DNA of 64,000 bases, taken from Ructibacterium sp. GTDB lineage: Bacteria > Bacillota > Clostridia > Monoglobales > Monoglobaceae. Below the pieces are notes generated by a model, which saw only the letters and a list, made by a program, of their open reading frames with translations, did not search any database and was not told where the DNA came from. Position numbers and translations under genes: made by a program. The DNA lies in assembly GCA_045578365.1 (NCBI GenBank), contig JAZNKC010000033.1:3009-67008 (forward strand), written 5' to 3'. This document shows, in pieces, positions 18,261 to 45,494 of this stretch. Position 1 is the stretch's first letter, and the number at the start of each line of letters is the position of its first letter.

Positions 18261-18465
18261 GGTTTCACCTCCAAATCATCAATCTAATACATAGTGTACC
18301 GGTAGAAAAGCACTATTTTCTTACACCAGTATTTAATATCATACCACCATTTCAAGCAAAATGCAAGCATTTTTTCAAAAAAAATGAAATAATTTCTCAA
18401 AAAAAATGAATTTTCACATAAAAATTTTTTCTCAAGGGAAAATATTCAAAAAGGAGTTGAGAAAA

Positions 18466-19455
18466 ATGAAGCAAGTACGCTGTGATTTGGCGGTAGAAGC
18501 AAGAGAAATGCTCACCGAATTACAAGGGGAGTCCTATCAGATACCCGGAGTCAAAATCAATGAAGAAACGGTAGATGGCTATATCCAGATTACCAAGGTG
18601 GAAGTTCTGGATGATGAGGGTGCCAGAGAACTGGGAAAAGAAATCGGGACGTATGTAACCGTTGAGATGCCTAGCCGGTTTTATGGACAGCAGAAAATCT
18701 ATGAACAGATGTGCCAAACCTGTGCCAAGGTGCTCAAAGAAATGACGGAGAAATTTTTACCCTCAGAAGAGGAAACTGTTTTGGTGGTAGGACTGGGAAA
18801 CTGGAATATTACCGCCGATGCACTGGGGCCCAAGGTGTTGAGCTCCCTAATGATAACCAGACATTTGAAAGAGTATATGCCGGATGAAATTGACGAGGGG
18901 GTAAGACCGGTTTGTGGTATTACACCGGGAGTTCTGGGGCTTACTGGAGTAGAAACAGGGGAGATTGTTCGGGGGATTGTAGAACGGGTTAGGCCATCCT
19001 TGGTAATTGCGATTGATGCACTCTGTTCCAGAAAAATTGAGCGTTTGAATACCACCATTCAATTTTCCGATACCGGTATTACACCGGGCGGCGGTGTTGG
19101 AAACCAAAGACAGGCAATTACCCAAAAAACATTGGGGGTTCCTGTTATCGCCATTGGTGTGCCCACCGTTGTTGATGCGGCAACCATTGCCAGCGAATCT
19201 ATGCATCGGGTGATATTGAAGGTAAAGGAACACGCACAGGCAAACAGTGAATTTTATCGTTTTCTGCAAGAATTGGAGCAGACGGAACGCTATGAATTGG
19301 TGCGGGAATCCATACGCCCGGCCTTTGGAAATTTCATTGTGGCACCCAAAGAGGTGGATGCCATCATTGATGATATTTCGGATGTCATTGCAAACGGCAT
19401 CAATATTGCTTTGCATAAAGGAATTGGGCTTGAGGATATCGATCGTTATATCTGA
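18466..19455 (+). CDS. gpr: Spore germination protease GPR
   Basis: RCDLAVEA, VVGLGNWNITADALGP, IAIDAL, IGVPTVVDA; divergent from rpsT; AAGGAG RBS. Confidence 0.95.
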   Translation: MKQVRCDLAVEAREMLTELQGESYQIPGVKINEETVDGYIQITKVEVLDDEGARELGKEIGTYVTVEMPSRFYGQQKIYEQMCQTCAKVLKEMTEKFLPSEEETVLVVGLGNWNITADALGPKVLSSLMITRHLKEYMPDEIDEGVRPVCGITPGVLGLTGVETGEIVRGIVERVRPSLVIAIDALCSRKIERLNTTIQFSDTGITPGGGVGNQRQAITQKTLGVPVIAIGVPTVVDAATIASESMHRVILKVKEHAQANSEFYRFLQELEQTERYELVRESIRPAFGNFIVAPKEVDAIIDDISDVIANGINIALHKGIGLEDIDRYI

Positions 19456-26738: not shown

Positions 26739-27551
26739 CTATTGTGCGTTTTTGATTTGCAGACGCAATTTGTCCGCAATCATTGCGATAAACTCGGAGT
26801 TGGTGGGCTTTCCTTTGGAATTTGCAATGGTATAACCAAAGAAGGAGTTAAGGACCTCGGTGTCACCTCTATCCCAAGCGACCTCGATGGCGTGACGAAT
26901 GGCACGTTCTACCCGACTGGGTGTGGTGTTGAAATCTTTTGCAACCGTGGGATATAATTCTTTGGTAATGGAATTGATGATATCCAAATCCTCCACAACC
27001 ATCATAATAGCGTGGCGCAGGTATTGATACCCTTTGATATGTGCCGGAATCCCGATTTCGTGAATAATTTCGGTGACCATAGTTTCCATATCCTTGCTTT
27101 GGGACTTCTCATTCAGTCCGCGAATCTCCCCTGCACGAATTTCCTTGCCTTTTGTTGCAGTTTCGGAAGAAAACATACAGATGCGATCCATTAAAACTTC
27201 AAAATCCACCGGCTTTAACATAAAATATTCCGCACCAAGGGCAATGCTTTTTGCTGCAATACTGTCATTGAGAACTGCGCTTACAACCAGAACTTTGGGG
27301 CGTTTTGCCAAATTCAGATTCTGCAATCGTTCCAAGACGCCAATGCCATCAAGGTTTGGCATCACCATATCCAGAATCAATACATCCGGTTCGGTCATTC
27401 GTATCATACTAATCGCTTCATTTCCGTCGTAAGCCATTCCGACAATCTCGATTTTAGGATTTGCTTTCATATATCCGGAAAGAACATCCAAATATTCCCT
27501 ATTGTCATCAGCAATCAAAACCCTTGTCTTTGGTACCATTTGTCCTTGCAT
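26739..27551 (-). CDS. spo0A: Sporulation master regulator Spo0A
   Basis: Receiver domain plus [47 protein letters not shown]. Confidence 0.98.
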
Positions 27552-36421: not shown

Positions 36422-36692
36422 TTAACCAAACAGAACAGAGTTGATGATGCTGTTTAAGTATTCCTGTCTGCCACTCTTGGGTTCTTTGGTGCTACCCAAT
36501 TTTTCAGCGTAAGCAGCCAGTTCTTCCAGAGAAGTTTGGTCGCTTAAAATCTTTTGACCGATTTCACTTTCAAAGCTCTGGTATTTTTCTTTGACAAAAG
36601 CATCCAGTCTGCCATCCTCAATGATTTTTGCTGCATTGATCAAGCCCAGTGCATAGGTGTCCATTGCCATAATGAAAGCGTGGAATATATCC
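36422..36692 (-). pseudogene. xylA: Xylose isomerase 3' remnant (last ~89 codons)
   Basis: DIFHAFIMAMDTYALGL..IEDGRLDAFVKEKY..IGQKI..SGRQEYLNSIINSVLF matches the class II XylA C-terminus; catalytic barrel missing. Confidence 0.8.
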
Positions 36693-37349
36693 TTAATTGT
36701 CTGCAATTCAGGGGAAATGGATGTCACGATTGACAGCAGTATCTACCAAATCAAAAAGGGCGAGGCAGTCCTTGTGTTTCCCCATCAGCTACACGCGCTT
36801 TCCAGTAATGAGAGCGAGCATACTCTGTGCATTTTTTCGCCGGAGCTGGTCAAAGCATACATCAACAAATACGCATCGCGCGTACCCAAAAACAGTAAGT
36901 TTTTGTTGAATCAATACCTCTTTGAAACCTTGCAATCCATCGACGAGGGATGTTCTTCCTTTGAAAAGAAAGGTTTTTTGTATTCCCTGTGTGCAGAATT
37001 TGACAAAACAACCGATTACAGGGAAAAAACAAAGAGTCAGGAACATTTGCTTTATAAAATTTTTGATTTTGTAGAGCTTCATTATCACGATGACTGTTCC
37101 CTGGATATTCTGGCAGAAAAAATCGGGTATAGCTATTCTTATCTTTCCCGTTATTTTAAGCGGATGACAGATATGTCTTTCAATGAGTATGTGAATCAGT
37201 ACCGAATCAGCAAAGCTTGCCATATTTTGACCAATTCTTCCTCCTCGGTCTTGCAATGCGCTTATGAAACAGGCTATAATTCCCTCCGCAGTTTTAATCG
37301 AAATTTTAAGCTCTATACCAATATGACCCCCAACCAATACCGCAAATAA
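36693..37349 (+). pseudogene. AraC family regulator, 5'-truncated
   Basis: Begins mid-cupin (LIVCNSGEMDVT..VFPHQLH); intact double HTH (YSYSYLSRYFK, GYNSLRSFNRNFK); upstream codons are antisense xylA. Confidence 0.75.
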
Positions 37350-37387: not shown

Positions 37388-38413
37388 TTATTGCTTTTCT
37401 GCTTCAGCCAGCATGTTTTCGATAAATATACCATACCCACGAGTTGGATCATTCACGAATACATGTGTCACAGCTCCCACAATTCGGCCATTTTGCAGTA
37501 TGGGCGAACCTGACATTCCCTGCACAATTCCTCCGGTTTTGCTCAAAAGCCTCTCGTCGGTTATTTTGATAATCATTCCCTTGGTGCTCTCGGTATCTTT
37601 GTTGATTTTTTGAATTTCCACAGAAAATTTTTCTACTTTCTCTTCCTCTACATTTGCCCAAATTTCTGCTGTTCCCTCTGTTACCTCTTCCCTTTTTGCA
37701 ACAGGAATCGGGGAGGTAGATATCATTCTAACTTCCTCTTTTTCTATCGTTCCTTTCAGTCCAACCGTGCTATTGCTTTGGACATCGCCGATCTTCCCTT
37801 TTCCCTCTGAAAAAACCGCGATCAGTTCACCAGGATTTCCCTTTCCGCCTTTTTGAACTGAAACCACATTGGCTTTCCACAAATCTCCGCCTGTAATGGA
37901 AAGTACTTCTTCTGTTGCATCAGAAATCCCGTGTCCTAATGCGCCAAAAGCTCCGGTTTCAGGGTTACAATAGGTGATGGTTCCGATTCCGGATGCGGCA
38001 TCCTTGATCCAGACGCCGATGCGATAATGTCCATCCTTATTAGAAAGTTCCGGTTTTACCTTACAGGAATCCGTCTTTCCGTTTCGGCGAAAAACGATAT
38101 TAATTACATTTTCTCCACGGTTGTTCACCACTTCTTCCAATTGTTTGGCGGATGCGATTTCCATGCCGTCAATGCTTTCAATGCGGTCACCGCTACGCAG
38201 TCCTGCATCTTTTGCAGGCGTATGCCGGTTGTTTTCATAATCCTCAACATCGGTGGTATCCACAATGGTTACACCTTTCATATCGAGTGTGACCCCAATG
38301 GTTTGTCCCATAGGAATCAAAAAAACTTCCTCGGCATATGCGGGAAAGTTGAAAAAAGAAAAAAACAGGGTCAAGAGCAGAAAACGAACACTCTTTTTCC
38401 TCAACTGATTCAT
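37388..38413 (-). CDS. spoIVB: Stage IV sporulation peptidase SpoIVB
   Basis: Signal peptide, PDZ, GIGTITY, GALGHGI, GGIVQGMSGSPILQNG, GAVTHVFVNDPTRGYG. Confidence 0.93.
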   Translation of the reverse strand: MNQLRKKSVRFLLLTLFFSFFNFPAYAEEVFLIPMGQTIGVTLDMKGVTIVDTTDVEDYENNRHTPAKDAGLRSGDRIESIDGMEIASAKQLEEVVNNRGENVINIVFRRNGKTDSCKVKPELSNKDGHYRIGVWIKDAASGIGTITYCNPETGAFGALGHGISDATEEVLSITGGDLWKANVVSVQKGGKGNPGELIAVFSEGKGKIGDVQSNSTVGLKGTIEKEEVRMISTSPIPVAKREEVTEGTAEIWANVEEEKVEKFSVEIQKINKDTESTKGMIIKITDERLLSKTGGIVQGMSGSPILQNGRIVGAVTHVFVNDPTRGYGIFIENMLAEAEKQ

Positions 38414-38514
38414 ACTTCAACCTCACAGAGAGGAGAATTTCCTCTCATTCATAGTATGAAACAAAAATCGAGATTTACCCTGAAAGATTTTTATAAAACT
38501 TCTTAAATATGTAA

Positions 38515-38534
38515 GGTCGGTCCTTGGACCGACC
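38515..38534 (-). terminator. Hairpin terminator after the poly-Asn ORF
   Basis: GGTCGGTCC-TT-GGACCGACC perfect inverted repeat 13 nt past the stop, weak U-tract. Confidence 0.6.
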
Positions 38535-38547
38535 CCAAAACATCCAA

Positions 38548-38676
38548 TTAGTCTCTGTTCTGGTTGTTGTTCTTATTTTTGTTGTTGCTGTTGCTGTTAT
38601 TATTGTTGTTCTGGTTGTTGTTATTGTTATTATTGTTTTTGTTCTGGTTGTTATTGTTATTTTGATTGTTAGACAT
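38548..38676 (-). CDS. 42-aa Asn-rich small protein, absent from ORF track
   Basis: AGGAGG RBS, ATG 38676, MSNNQNNNNNQNKNNNNNNNNQNNNNNSNSNNKNKNNNQNRD*, mixed AAC/AAT codons. Confidence 0.8.
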   Translation of the reverse strand: MSNNQNNNNNQNKNNNNNNNNQNNNNNSNSNNKNKNNNQNRD

Positions 38677-38736
38677 AGTTTGTCCCTCCTGAAAAATTTT
38701 TTAATTTTATCTTTATCCTTTTCCTTGGTACACCTT

Positions 38737-38765
38737 TATTTTGTTCTGAAATTATAAAAATATAC
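38737..38765 (-). promoter_or_regulatory. sigma-G-type promoter of the Asn-rich ORF
   Basis: Minus strand GTATA-17 nt-CAAAATA. Confidence 0.6.
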
Positions 38766-38820
38766 AAAAAATTGTTACTTTTTTGAGATGATGAATAGAA
38801 TGTTGATAAGAGGTGTTATT

Positions 38821-39267
38821 ATGAATATCAATTCTATTAAAAATAGTACTGTCGAGAAAGCAGATACCAATTCCTTTGAAGGCATTGTAGTTCCACCTGG
38901 ATGTGACCATAAGATTTTGCGGGATTCCGGCGAACCTGTCCGCACCTATACGCCTGCATCCTATGATTCGGAAAGCTATGCAAATAACCAGAGGCGCATG
39001 CATATGATGAGCGGAAAATGCGACTTGATTTCTGTTCCGCAATCTCCATTGCCATCTGCAAGACGAAGTATGGCTGATTATTTACAAAAATTTCAAGGTG
39101 CGCATCTATGTCTGGATCTGTGGACGTCTTCCCGCCAAAAGATCAAACGCTGTGGCATTTTATTGGAAATCGGACAGGATTTTTTGGTTATGGGCGATGC
39201 CGGGAGCGGGAAAATCAGCCTGATTGACTTAAAACCTATCTGCTATATCAATATTTATTGCAGATAA
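38821..39267 (+). CDS. Hypothetical protein, probably spore-associated (small beta-rich C-terminal domain)
   Basis: GAGGTG RBS; YLQKFQG..GILLEIGQDFLVM..LIDLKPICYINIY resembles clostridial spore-coat-type hypotheticals. Confidence 0.55.
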   Translation: MNINSIKNSTVEKADTNSFEGIVVPPGCDHKILRDSGEPVRTYTPASYDSESYANNQRRMHMMSGKCDLISVPQSPLPSARRSMADYLQKFQGAHLCLDLWTSSRQKIKRCGILLEIGQDFLVMGDAGSGKISLIDLKPICYINIYCR

Positions 39268-42856: not shown

Positions 42857-42888
42857 AAAGACCTGCACTTTACAGTGCAGGTTTTTTT
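42855..42888. terminator. Bidirectional terminator (rqcH / hydF)
   Basis: AAAAAGACCTGCACT-TTAC-AGTGCAGGTTTTTT. Confidence 0.8.
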
Positions 42889-44074
42889 ATCGAAATATTT
42901 CTGTTGCACGGTCTAAGATTCCATTCAAGTAGGCGATTGCCACACCATAGTTGCTGATTGGAATATTTGCCTCTTTCAGACGTTTCATTCTGGTTTCGAC
43001 TTCCTGCTTGTTGACCATACACATTCCGCAGGAAAGCGCCATTTTGTACTCACTCAGATCATCAGGAAAATCATAACCGCTGAAGTAGAAGAAACGGCAG
43101 CCAACCCCCAATTTGTTATGCACCAACATCGGTAGCTTTCTTCTAGCAATATCCTCATGGGTTGTGTTGTGAGAACACCCTTCCAGAACCAGAATCGCAT
43201 CCCCGTCCTTGAGATTGGCAAATTGGGAAACGCCCTCCAGATACTGTGCAAAATCCCCTTTTTTTCTGGCAAGGAGCATAGAAAACGAAGTAAGCGGAAT
43301 CTCCTTGGGGACAATTTCATCCACCAGAGGGAAGATTTGAGAATCGGTAATCACCAAATCCACTTTTTCAAGCTCGTCAAGAACCTCTTTCAGTTCCGTC
43401 TCCTTGGTGACCATAACTTTCATATTATGGTCAAGGCAATCTCTTAAAATCTGAACCTGCGGAAGAATCAATCTCCCCTTAGGTGCCGCACTATCGATGG
43501 GCGTTACCAGCACAACGGTGCTCTTTTCAGGGAGTAAGTCCCCTACCCAAGTCTCTTCTTCTTTTTTCTCTTCATTGATAGGCGTGTCTAATTTTTTCAG
43601 CTCCGCAACCATTCGGGTTTTCAATTCATCCAGCCCATCTTCTCCGAAATTGGACAAAAACACCGCATTAGGATTTTCTTTTTTCAACCAGAGCAAGGTG
43701 TCTTCATCCAACAGTTCACACTTATTAAAAACAATGATAGCAGGCTTTGAAAAATAGAATGCAGACGCCTCGTGAGTTGCTGCGTCAAGAACATACAGAA
43801 TCAAATCCGCTCGATCCAAAGTTTTGAGTGTTTTTTCCATTCGCTGTTTCCCGAGCTCACTTTGGTCGCTCAAGCCTGCCGTGTCCATCAGGGCAACTGG
43901 TCCGTAAGGGATCAGTTCCATCGCTTTGATGACCGAGTCGGTGGTGGTTCCGCTTACATCGGACACAATCGAAACATCCTGTCCCAGCAAACGGTTAAAC
44001 AGGGTAGATTTTCCTGAATTGGTATCCCCGACTAAGGCAATATGCTTTCGCATAGAAAGGGGTGTTTGTTCCAT
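42887..44074 (-). CDS. hydF: [FeFe]-hydrogenase maturation GTPase HydF
   Basis: GDTNSGKS, GTTTD, DTAG, APKGRLILPQVQ, ITDSQ, CxH..CxxC, NYG. Confidence 0.92.
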   Translation of the reverse strand: MEQTPLSMRKHIALVGDTNSGKSTLFNRLLGQDVSIVSDVSGTTTDSVIKAMELIPYGPVALMDTAGLSDQSELGKQRMEKTLKTLDRADLILYVLDAATHEASAFYFSKPAIIVFNKCELLDEDTLLWLKKENPNAVFLSNFGEDGLDELKTRMVAELKKLDTPINEEKKEEETWVGDLLPEKSTVVLVTPIDSAAPKGRLILPQVQILRDCLDHNMKVMVTKETELKEVLDELEKVDLVITDSQIFPLVDEIVPKEIPLTSFSMLLARKKGDFAQYLEGVSQFANLKDGDAILVLEGCSHNTTHEDIARRKLPMLVHNKLGVGCRFFYFSGYDFPDDLSEYKMALSCGMCMVNKQEVETRMKRLKEANIPISNYGVAIAYLNGILDRATEIFR

Positions 44075-44088
44075 TTCACAGACCTCCT

Positions 44089-45459
44089 TTATACAAAAAG
44101 ATCTCTCTGTCCTTGCTTGATTTTCTCGATATTTTCCCGCGTCAGTTCCCGAACCTTTTCATTTTCAATATTGGGAATCTCCCGCTCGATGGTCTGGATG
44201 GCTTTTTGCTTAAATTCTTCATCACCATAATCCAAGGTATATTCCGCAAGAGTCATCAACGCATTGGGGAGACAAACATTTTTGATGTTACCGGATTTGG
44301 CAAGGGCCATAAATCGGTCGCCGGTTCTTCCGCTACGATAACAAGCGGTGCAGAAGCTGGGCACCATTCCCTCGTCCATAATCCATTTGATGACCGACAT
44401 GGCATCTCTTTCATCAATGACTTCAAACTGAACGTGTGCTTTTTTGTTCTTTTGGTAGCTACCCACGCCGGTCGCAGAACCTGCACTCATCTGAGAAATA
44501 CCTAAGCGAATCAATTCCTTACGCATATCCTTGCTCTCGCGAGTGGATACAATCATACCGGTAAAAGGCACCGCCAAACGAATGATGGCAACCAGTTTCT
44601 TAAAGGTTTCGTCATCGACTGCATAAGGATATTGGGTCTGGAGTGCCCCTTCGGCTTTGCGAATACGGGGAACAGAAATGGTGTGGAAACCAACCCCGAA
44701 TTCCTTTTCCAGATGCTCGTTGTGGAGCATCAAGCCCATAACCTCAAAACAGGGGTCATAAAGTCCAAACAAGACACCGCCGCCCACATCATCAATGCCA
44801 CCTTGCATCGCGCGGTCAAAGGCAGTTGTGTGATAGTCATAGTCCCGTTTCGGCCCGGAAATGTGCATATCCAGATAGGTGGGCTTGTGATAGGTTTCCT
44901 GAAACAGAATATAAGTGCCGATGCCAACCTCTTTCAGCTTTTGATAGTTCTCTACCGTAGTTGCTGCAATATTGACATTCAAACGACGGATTTCGCCGTT
45001 TTCGAATTTCATATCATAAATGGTTTTCATACATTCAAGAATGTATTCAATAGGACAATTCTCATCATCCTCGCCCGCCTCTACTGCAAGACGTTTGTGA
45101 CCCATAGATTCCAAAATCTTAACTTCTTCCCGCACCTCATCCATGGTCAGGCGTTTGCGTTCAAACTTGTGCTTACAGTTGTAGCTACAGTATTTACACT
45201 CATTGACGCAATAATCGCTGACATAAAGCGGTGCAAACATTACAATGCGGTTGCCGTAAATGTGCTGCTTGATTTTGTGTGCAATGGAAAACATCCGCTT
45301 GAGCTGTTCCGGATTTTCCAGCATCAACAGGGAAGCAACCTCTTGATGGGTCAGCCCCTCAAAGTTGTCTGCTTTGTCCAGAATGCGGTCAATTTCTTGG
45401 ACATCGGTAGTTTTTGCGTTTTCCAAAAGTTTTTCTATATATTGCTCATCGATAAACAA
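44089..45459 (-). CDS. hydG: [FeFe]-hydrogenase maturation radical SAM HydG
   Basis: YGNRIVMFAPLY, CVNECKYC, LFQETY, PSFCTACYR..C; TTG start after GAAAGGA. Confidence 0.95.
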   Translation of the reverse strand: MFIDEQYIEKLLENAKTTDVQEIDRILDKADNFEGLTHQEVASLLMLENPEQLKRMFSIAHKIKQHIYGNRIVMFAPLYVSDYCVNECKYCSYNCKHKFERKRLTMDEVREEVKILESMGHKRLAVEAGEDDENCPIEYILECMKTIYDMKFENGEIRRLNVNIAATTVENYQKLKEVGIGTYILFQETYHKPTYLDMHISGPKRDYDYHTTAFDRAMQGGIDDVGGGVLFGLYDPCFEVMGLMLHNEHLEKEFGVGFHTISVPRIRKAEGALQTQYPYAVDDETFKKLVAIIRLAVPFTGMIVSTRESKDMRKELIRLGISQMSAGSATGVGSYQKNKKAHVQFEVIDERDAMSVIKWIMDEGMVPSFCTACYRSGRTGDRFMALAKSGNIKNVCLPNALMTLAEYTLDYGDEEFKQKAIQTIEREIPNIENEKVRELTRENIEKIKQGQRDLFV

Positions 45460-45494
45460 AATAATCAATCCTTTCCGCGAAAATTCGCCTTTTT

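Follow-up and report, generated by a model that had tools for sequence, protein, structure and literature searches.

The described protein closest to the product considered here is the gamma-type SASP, represented by SspE (PF04259, TIGR01442). Gamma-SASPs contain a long conserved repeat, present internally in one to three copies, and the consensus of the GPR cleavage site is E[FI][AG]xE. According to PMC8452069, C. difficile SASPs carry 'EIA' at this site and the storage role of the gamma type is itself only 'hypothesized'; PMC7649253 states that germinating spores, which have no biosynthetic enzymes, live on degraded SASP. PMC3533761 and PMC8452069 report gamma-SASPs as missing from clostridia, with sspE in 0/52 clostridial spore-former genomes in Table S3 of the former, and the same absence claimed in the initial annotation of this DNA agrees with these sources. 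In our own search PF04259 was found in none of 41 related genomes, and the B. subtilis control matched. Here we describe a small gene whose peptide would take the place of the gamma-type storage SASP reported missing from Clostridia.

The gene and its surroundings in the window (the whole 64,000-nucleotide stretch of DNA that was analysed) comprise the following features.

38548-38676, minus strand: small Asn/Gln/Lys ORF of 42 aa, 4.9 kDa, calculated pI 10.3, no predicted fold
38685-38690, minus strand: Shine-Dalgarno (SD) sequence AGGAGG, 8 nt ahead of the ATG; GGAGG-ATG in 19/19 syntenic loci
38761-38765, minus strand: putative -35 element GTATA, sigma-G-type; G[CTA]ATA-17/18-xAxAxTA in 19/19 syntenic loci
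38737-38743, minus strand: putative -10 element CAAAATA after a 17-nt spacer, without a sigma-F-type GG before it
38727-38732, minus strand: TGTACC at the likely transcription start, common to alpha/beta-SASP promoters (YGTAAC/TGTACC)
38512-38537 (about), minus strand: GC-rich 3' hairpin without a U-tract, -28.5 kcal/mol, z -4.8
38508-38513, minus strand: TACATA just behind the hairpin; TACAT within 100 nt in 17/19 syntenic loci, shuffles 2.5
38452-38480, minus strand: separate putative forespore-type spoIVB promoter GGGTA-17-CATACTA; xATACTA-type -10 in aligned relatives
37388-38413, minus strand: spoIVB, Pfam S55 and PDZ, TIGR02860 at 373 bits, above cut-off; a downstream neighbour outside the unit
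38788-39267, plus strand: divergent GerQ-like gene, weak Pfam Spore_GerQ match; best Foldseek match the GerQ filament 8zra (probability 1.0, E 0.006)

The initial annotation had proposed a complete minus-strand unit, and its parts (ORF, GGAGG, GTATA-17-CAAAATA and hairpin) are indeed all present. Our codon count returns the 29 Asn and 4 Gln among 42 residues that it had given, with 3 Lys and 3 Ser besides. Asn is written by 20 AAC and 9 AAT codons and Gln by 3 CAG and 1 CAA; the longest single-codon run is 3, yet the longest Asn run is 8. The Asn+Gln share of 0.79 is exceptional, no other exceeding 0.40 among 3891 SD-preceded ORF candidates of 15-120 aa in the same genome. AAC makes up 0.69 of the Asn codons, against 0.68 in eight highly expressed genes and 0.49 genome-wide (p 0.026). 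Side-chain nitrogen is borne by 89% of the residues, and the N/C ratio is 0.455, where the proteome median is 0.269 and the maximum in 1143 long ORFs is 0.349. The hydropathy of the peptide is -3.2, and structure prediction (pLDDT 59, pTM 0.14) suggests no fold.

The window peptide matched 0 Pfam and 0 NCBIfam families, and protein searches at E 10 scored nothing for it (24 candidates) or for a peptide of family f11, described below (437 candidates), although the low complexity of both queries makes these blank searches uninformative. The exact peptide is absent from about 15 billion predicted proteins. Exact look-ups of 18 small peptides likewise found none present, a true Geomicrobium gamma-SASP included, so that absence from this collection is no sign of novelty. 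No description of this peptide class was found in the literature searched, which included few subscription papers. Two C. difficile entries were considered as possible earlier descriptions: CD2245.1 is an unnamed sigma-G gene, and CDR20291_0316 is an 'asparagine-rich' coat protein under mother-cell (sigma-E/K) control. Judged from its sequence, the locus is apparently an unannotated forespore microprotein gene.

The promoter motif, placed 60 nt ahead of the ATG, closely resembles that of the alpha/beta-SASP gene of the same genome (GCATA-17-CACAATA, then TGTAACC), and the same geometry occurs at 22 of 28 parsed SASP loci of relatives, 2 further loci being unparsed. Its 17-nt form has 21 occurrences in the genome, 10 of them before an SD-start, and the genes behind five of these ten are spoVAC, an M23/SpoIIQ-like gene, a Mn-catalase, a YqzL-like gene and a DUF2508 gene. 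At 19/19 syntenic loci the motif lacks the G characteristic of sigma-F promoters, a distinction described in PMC3789822, whose mapped C. difficile sigma-G promoters, for example those of CD0684 and sspA, look alike. As the promoters recognised by sigma-F and by sigma-G overlap in C. difficile according to PMC7438776, we call the promoter 'forespore, likely sigma-G'; the motif thus makes the small gene a likely part of the forespore regulon, probably under sigma-G. The sigma-G-like promoter proposed in the initial annotation is borne out to this extent by the motif match to the alpha/beta-SASP and spoVAC promoters of the lineage. An overlapping sigma-A-like GTAACA-16-TATAAT is present at the window locus and is not retained in relatives. 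The genome encodes Spo0A, GPR, SpoVT, SpoIVA and one alpha/beta-SASP, and its SigG-like protein scores just below the curated cut-off.

Conservation was assessed at spoIVB loci from 41 related genomes, of which 38 matched and 30 loci were taken, the choice being blind to the small ORF. The small gene is kept at 21/21 same-genus loci (20 whole, 1 cut by a contig end inside an open frame), a count that leaves out three genus genomes without a spoIVB match; the synteny beside spoIVB that the initial annotation had put forward as a check is found at most of these loci. In 18 of the 21 a whole ORF lies just upstream of spoIVB. In G014 the small gene stands 3.9 kb upstream with both genes intact, and in G012 it lies on the contig carrying the first half of spoIVB. 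The small gene, with the same promoter motif, is also present in further genera of the family (8 loci in one set and 6 in another, one of the six being cut upstream); the 8 spoIVB loci that belong to different families of the order lack it within 1.5 kb.

At the 19 aligned loci the peptide varies in length from 29 to 42 aa, and 19/19 retain SD, ATG, frame and stop. Indels between close relatives come in multiples of 3 (3, 3 and 12 nt between L001 and L002, 12 nt between L012 and L014). In two metagenome contigs the repeat is altered by +6 and -12 nt, with an 11-nt insertion only just outside the ORF. The frame-preserving length variation predicted at the outset is thus what relatives display. 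The codon table is equally telling: AAY and AAR (Asn and Lys) are used 375 and 87 times, but CAY and CAR (His and Gln) 0 and 103 times. Such exclusion of His while Gln is kept would not be given by a DNA repeat and points to selection on the protein. QQ pairs number 0 where 15.9 are expected, and runs of Asn and Gln are shorter than in shuffles. When 16 members are aligned, 4 columns are invariant and the repeats are limited to short NQN/NKN units, with no long internal repeat of the gamma-SASP type; composition and length, and not the sequence itself, are what is conserved. Taken together, codon mixing, His avoidance and in-frame indels agree with the selection that the initial annotation had read from mixed AAC/AAT codons, and a real gene under protein-level selection is supported by these sequence comparisons.

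The window gene and gamma-SASP genes have much in common: each is a single gene with a strong SD, a sigma-G-type promoter and a 3' hairpin (a likeness of motifs only), and encodes a small, hydrophilic, very Asn/Gln-rich product. In contrast to a gamma-SASP, the window peptide has no HMM match, no EF[AG]SE-type GPR site and no Ala/Gly/Thr/Glu core. It contains no Phe, Ile or Ala. Among 145 members of the wider class described below the strict GPR motif occurs in 0 and a loose one in 2, plus two more f11 peptides. The class is also shorter than gamma-SASPs (median 39 against 51-84 aa) and richer in Asn+Gln (75-79% against 51%). The gamma-SASP analogy that had been claimed therefore stands for composition and regulation, whereas family membership fails on HMM, GPR site and repeat; the sequence evidence supports an analogue of gamma-SASP rather than a member of that family.

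A blind scan with the same DNA pattern also caught true single-repeat gamma-SASPs of Geomicrobium, the only peptides among those tested to match PF04259/TIGR01442. Asn-rich arms flank a central QF[SA][DE]E in family f11 (L133, L319, L365; 3/3 genomes), and L120 encodes an Asn-rich peptide with EFSE; these f11 and L120 peptides are 56-72 aa long, with a GPR-site-like motif. L365 also has a 61-aa ORF with TEFSEEL and a sigma-G-type promoter. Poly-Asn peptides with EFA were seen in Lysinibacillus (L181, L277), with no match to Pfam SASP_gamma nor, where tested, to TIGR01442; these are possibly divergent gamma-SASPs. A class-wide search for Asn-rich forms bearing a GPR site matched 39 of 301 genomes and gave a new such peptide in 0 of 30 loci, so that these forms are rare. 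Such intermediates suggest that the class may grade into gamma-SASP, but no family model matches them, their alignment is weak and they are few.

The small gene appears to be one member of a wide class in spore-forming Clostridia. A pattern of SD-ATG followed by 14 Asn/Gln/Lys-type codons, which favours AT-rich, SD-using genomes, gave at least 120 matches over all GTDB species. Among the 120 matches listed, 95 are closed ORFs that do not exceed 70 aa and contain 45% or more Asn+Gln, 90 of these being labelled Clostridia-type, 4 Bacillales and 1 Bacillota; none of the nine matches listed from outside Bacillota passed, one having 71 aa at 0.42 and one being cut open. The promoter motif, again among the matches listed, lies upstream of 55 of the 93 distant peptides whose flank is long enough (shuffles 1.6), and in controls it precedes 1/25 other matches listed and 8/552 long genes. 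For the 38 of these 93 that are without the strict motif, a relaxed one was found in 13 (shuffles 7.2, maximum 13), which is no clear excess.

In a class sample of 401 genomes the exact pattern matched 50, giving 35 true small ORFs and 15 false ones, that is, at least 35 carriers in at least 13 Clostridia families, a floor because known carriers are missed by the pattern. A class-wide pattern allowing 3 mismatches was noisy (148/401 genomes, many false; 30 loci held 6 small ORFs, of which 5 look real), and exact patterns were used instead. An order-wide pattern matched 105/151 genomes, but only 8 of 30 loci held small Asn/Gln ORFs, so that the figure is not a carrier count; an HMM built from the peptide alignment was insensitive, finding 8/41 genomes and missing the window's own. 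The distribution is patchy. SpoIVA is encoded in 32/35 carriers against 305/399 genomes overall (p 0.035, related genomes not being independent), and the 3 carriers without spoIVA have SigG- or SigF-like and SpoVT matches; as many sporulating families are without a carrier, the link to sporulation is suggestive only.

The 145 members contain 75% Asn+Gln, about 11% Lys, 1.7% hydrophobic residues and 1.4% Gly+Ala+Thr+Pro, with Gly at 0.5%. Their median length is 39 aa, their net charge runs from 0 to +6 (median +3), their mean hydropathy is -3.2 and their median pI 10.0. We define the class provisionally by common promoter, size and composition, homology across families being unprovable for sequences of this kind. 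Outside the window's family, the next long gene in 30 members is convergent in 16, on the same strand in 9 and not seen in 5. In L136:677-1403 (G148), on the gene's strand, the small gene stands right behind a gene resembling sigE, and not before spoIVB.

Resemblances to the alpha/beta-SASPs (PF00269) lie mainly in regulation. The window gene has their promoter geometry and start-site motif, and the SspA of this genome begins with an Asn-rich tail similar to the window peptide; against this, the peptide has no sequence match to them, no predicted helical DNA-binding fold and no GPR site. It did not match PF00269, and the one PF00269 gene of the genome is on another contig. In genus g52 (family f26, L336-L354), an Asn-rich ORF of 24-43 aa follows 18-51 nt behind an alpha/beta-SASP gene at 18/18 assessable loci, those with downstream sequence, one more being cut; no such ORF stood behind the alpha/beta-SASP gene at 10 loci of other genera in this family. 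The g52 peptides have more Arg and Glu than the window peptide and are near neutral. The alpha/beta-SASP gene of this two-gene unit is without the strict promoter motif. At L063-L066 the alpha/beta-SASP frames stop early (about 58 aa), and the TGACCCG that they have in common beyond this point suggests an insertion or intervening sequence.

Downstream of the ORF, the GC-rich hairpin reported initially is present and very stable, its stability being matched by 0/200 shuffles, with the qualification that the U-tract is missing. A terminator scan found none at the window locus, and at least 5 T in the 8 nt after the stem occur at 3/19 homologous loci. Without a U-tract the hairpin is not a canonical intrinsic terminator, and it is likely an mRNA stabiliser or weak terminator. 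RNAalifold gave no consensus for the 3' region owing to misalignment, and stems were taken per locus instead. Of the 17 genus loci with TACAT, 16 have it 8-14 nt past the stem, and the motif is mildly enriched in other families (35/112 against 17.6). The position of spoIVB directly downstream, as originally described, is upheld by the TIGR02860 match. Its xATACTA-type -10 persists in G014, although the small gene is no longer adjacent there.

Our preferred explanation, at roughly an even chance, is that the peptide is made under sigma-G, resides in the spore core and serves there as a store of amino acids, much as gamma-SASP does. In this model, sigma-G would transcribe a short, unstructured mRNA late in sporulation, and the strong SD and AAC bias would imply strong translation into a bulk peptide. 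This basic peptide of 4.9 kDa is predicted to stay unfolded and soluble, and would accumulate in the core with the SASPs. At germination it would be broken down by general peptidases and not by GPR, its Asn and Lys passing into early protein synthesis and its Gln also serving as amide donor. A store needs only composition and length, which fits what is conserved. Within the genus, asparaginase PF00710 was found in 1/6 genomes and PF01112 in 0/5, and AsnRS and AsnA are present, so that released Asn would go mainly to translation and its nitrogen may be hard to release; the release of nitrogen from a spore store, as first proposed, is weakened accordingly.

Some properties sit poorly with a store. 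The near-total lack of hydrophobic and small residues makes the peptide a poor general amino-acid supply, and GPR is encoded in the genome but the peptide has no GPR site. A narrow positive charge and the avoidance of QQ suggest a physical constraint beyond storage, and this charge together with the way Gln and Lys are interspersed among Asn fits a protectant equally well. If the peptide is a major spore-core protein, the reported clostridial gap in gamma-SASP would reflect a very small gene of low complexity that escapes gene callers and HMMs, and spores of common gut Clostridia would have a new component. The long-open question of gamma-SASP function would also become directly testable, as only composition, length and charge appear conserved here and a recoded peptide could separate a storage from a physical role.

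Foremost among the other readings, though in our estimation unlikely, is that the sigma-G spore-core peptide acts physically, as an unfolded, mildly cationic, amide-rich filler for which storage is secondary, replacing water or coating ribosomes, RNA and DNA in the dehydrated core in an LEA/hydrophilin-like manner. The extreme hydropathy and high pI of the class, its confined charge, the predicted lack of fold, the short Asn/Gln runs, the scarcity of asparaginase and the linkage to DNA-binding alpha/beta-SASP genes in g52 would all suit such a role. LEA/hydrophilins and KGG-repeat proteins are likewise extremely hydrophilic and predicted unfolded, but hydrophilins are Gly-rich, above 6%, whereas the class has almost no Gly, Ala or Thr; LEA_5/KGG models matched no clostridial member, though one Bacillales match had a hit, and the Arg/Glu-rich, near-neutral g52 peptides do not fit a cationic filler. 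Self-assembly is less favoured. Assembly in the spore into functional amyloid or a prion-like condensate, which we regard as quite improbable, would draw on the dominance of Asn and Gln that the class has in common with yeast-type Q/N-rich prion-like domains of low complexity. Unlike those domains, the members stand alone at 25-70 aa, are interrupted by Lys, have almost no aromatics and follow a forespore promoter. Charge disfavours prion formation, and the members are short, Lys-containing and poor in hydrophobic residues, with homopolymer runs below chance length. According to PMC10624427, N-predominant N/Q repeats are robustly amyloid in yeast when seeded, but unseeded repeats failed and polyN nucleates far less than polyQ. 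A composite proposal strikes us as improbable: that the amide-only peptide of gut Clostridia forms a reversible amyloid or gel matrix of the core that is also a nitrogen store and dissolves at germination, the QF[SA][DE]E/EFSE peptides linking one ancient, mostly unannotated class with gamma-SASP.

Explanations that dispense with a spore-core peptide fare worse. An Asn-tRNA-sensing leader, or an RNA acting itself as protein sponge or adenine-rich nucleotide store, might control or accompany spoIVB, and the fixed place before spoIVB in this family, a hairpin whose missing U-tract may permit read-through, a weak Rfam similarity to CrcZ, an sRNA with AAN repeats (19.6 bits, cut-off 95), and the proposal in PMC7649253 that spore mRNAs are nucleotide stores all lean that way. 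We nevertheless judge it very improbable, as spoIVB has its own conserved promoter, the two genes are 3.9 kb apart and intact in G014, and neighbours elsewhere are mostly convergent (16/30) or unrelated, observations that tell against the leader suggested in the initial annotation. The ORF is unpaired in the centroid fold and so offers no alternative structure, no alternative pairing or linked amino-acid operon of the attenuator kind was found, the third codon position is A in just 81/647 codons, and Hfq was found in 0/5 genomes. In this genus transcription may still run on past the U-less hairpin into spoIVB. That the locus encodes no product, being either a neutral trinucleotide repeat or the shadow cast by a hydrophobic ORF on the opposite strand, might be thought from its low complexity, the want of a database protein match and a 77-aa Val/Ile-rich ORF antisense to the small gene; such a reading is hardly credible given that SD, ATG, frame and stop persist at every aligned locus, where SD-preceded starts were found in 0 antisense frames, and given His avoidance, codon mixing and a conserved promoter.

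Several minor observations concern the neighbourhood. The divergent GerQ-like gene, which is unannotated and likely a spore coat gene, has an N-part with a conserved IVVPPGCD and a C-terminal Sm fold, and its linkage to the small gene holds across the family; translation may in fact begin at the Met at 38821. At 38480-38495 on the minus strand, immediately ahead of the spoIVB promoter, stands a conserved TTTCA[AG]AAA[AC]T, also seen in L004-L019, which resembles a CodY box. Both spo0A (26742-27551, minus) and gpr (18406-19452, plus) lie inside the window, spo0A about 10 kb from spoIVB; in L005, L020, L022 and L024 a Spo0A-like ORF comes directly after spoIVB. A 101-aa ORF at 36422-36727 (minus), overlapped by an AraC regulator gene, looks like a C-terminal remnant of xylose isomerase, and the genes at 42887-45468 (minus) resemble those of the hydrogenase maturases hydG and hydF.
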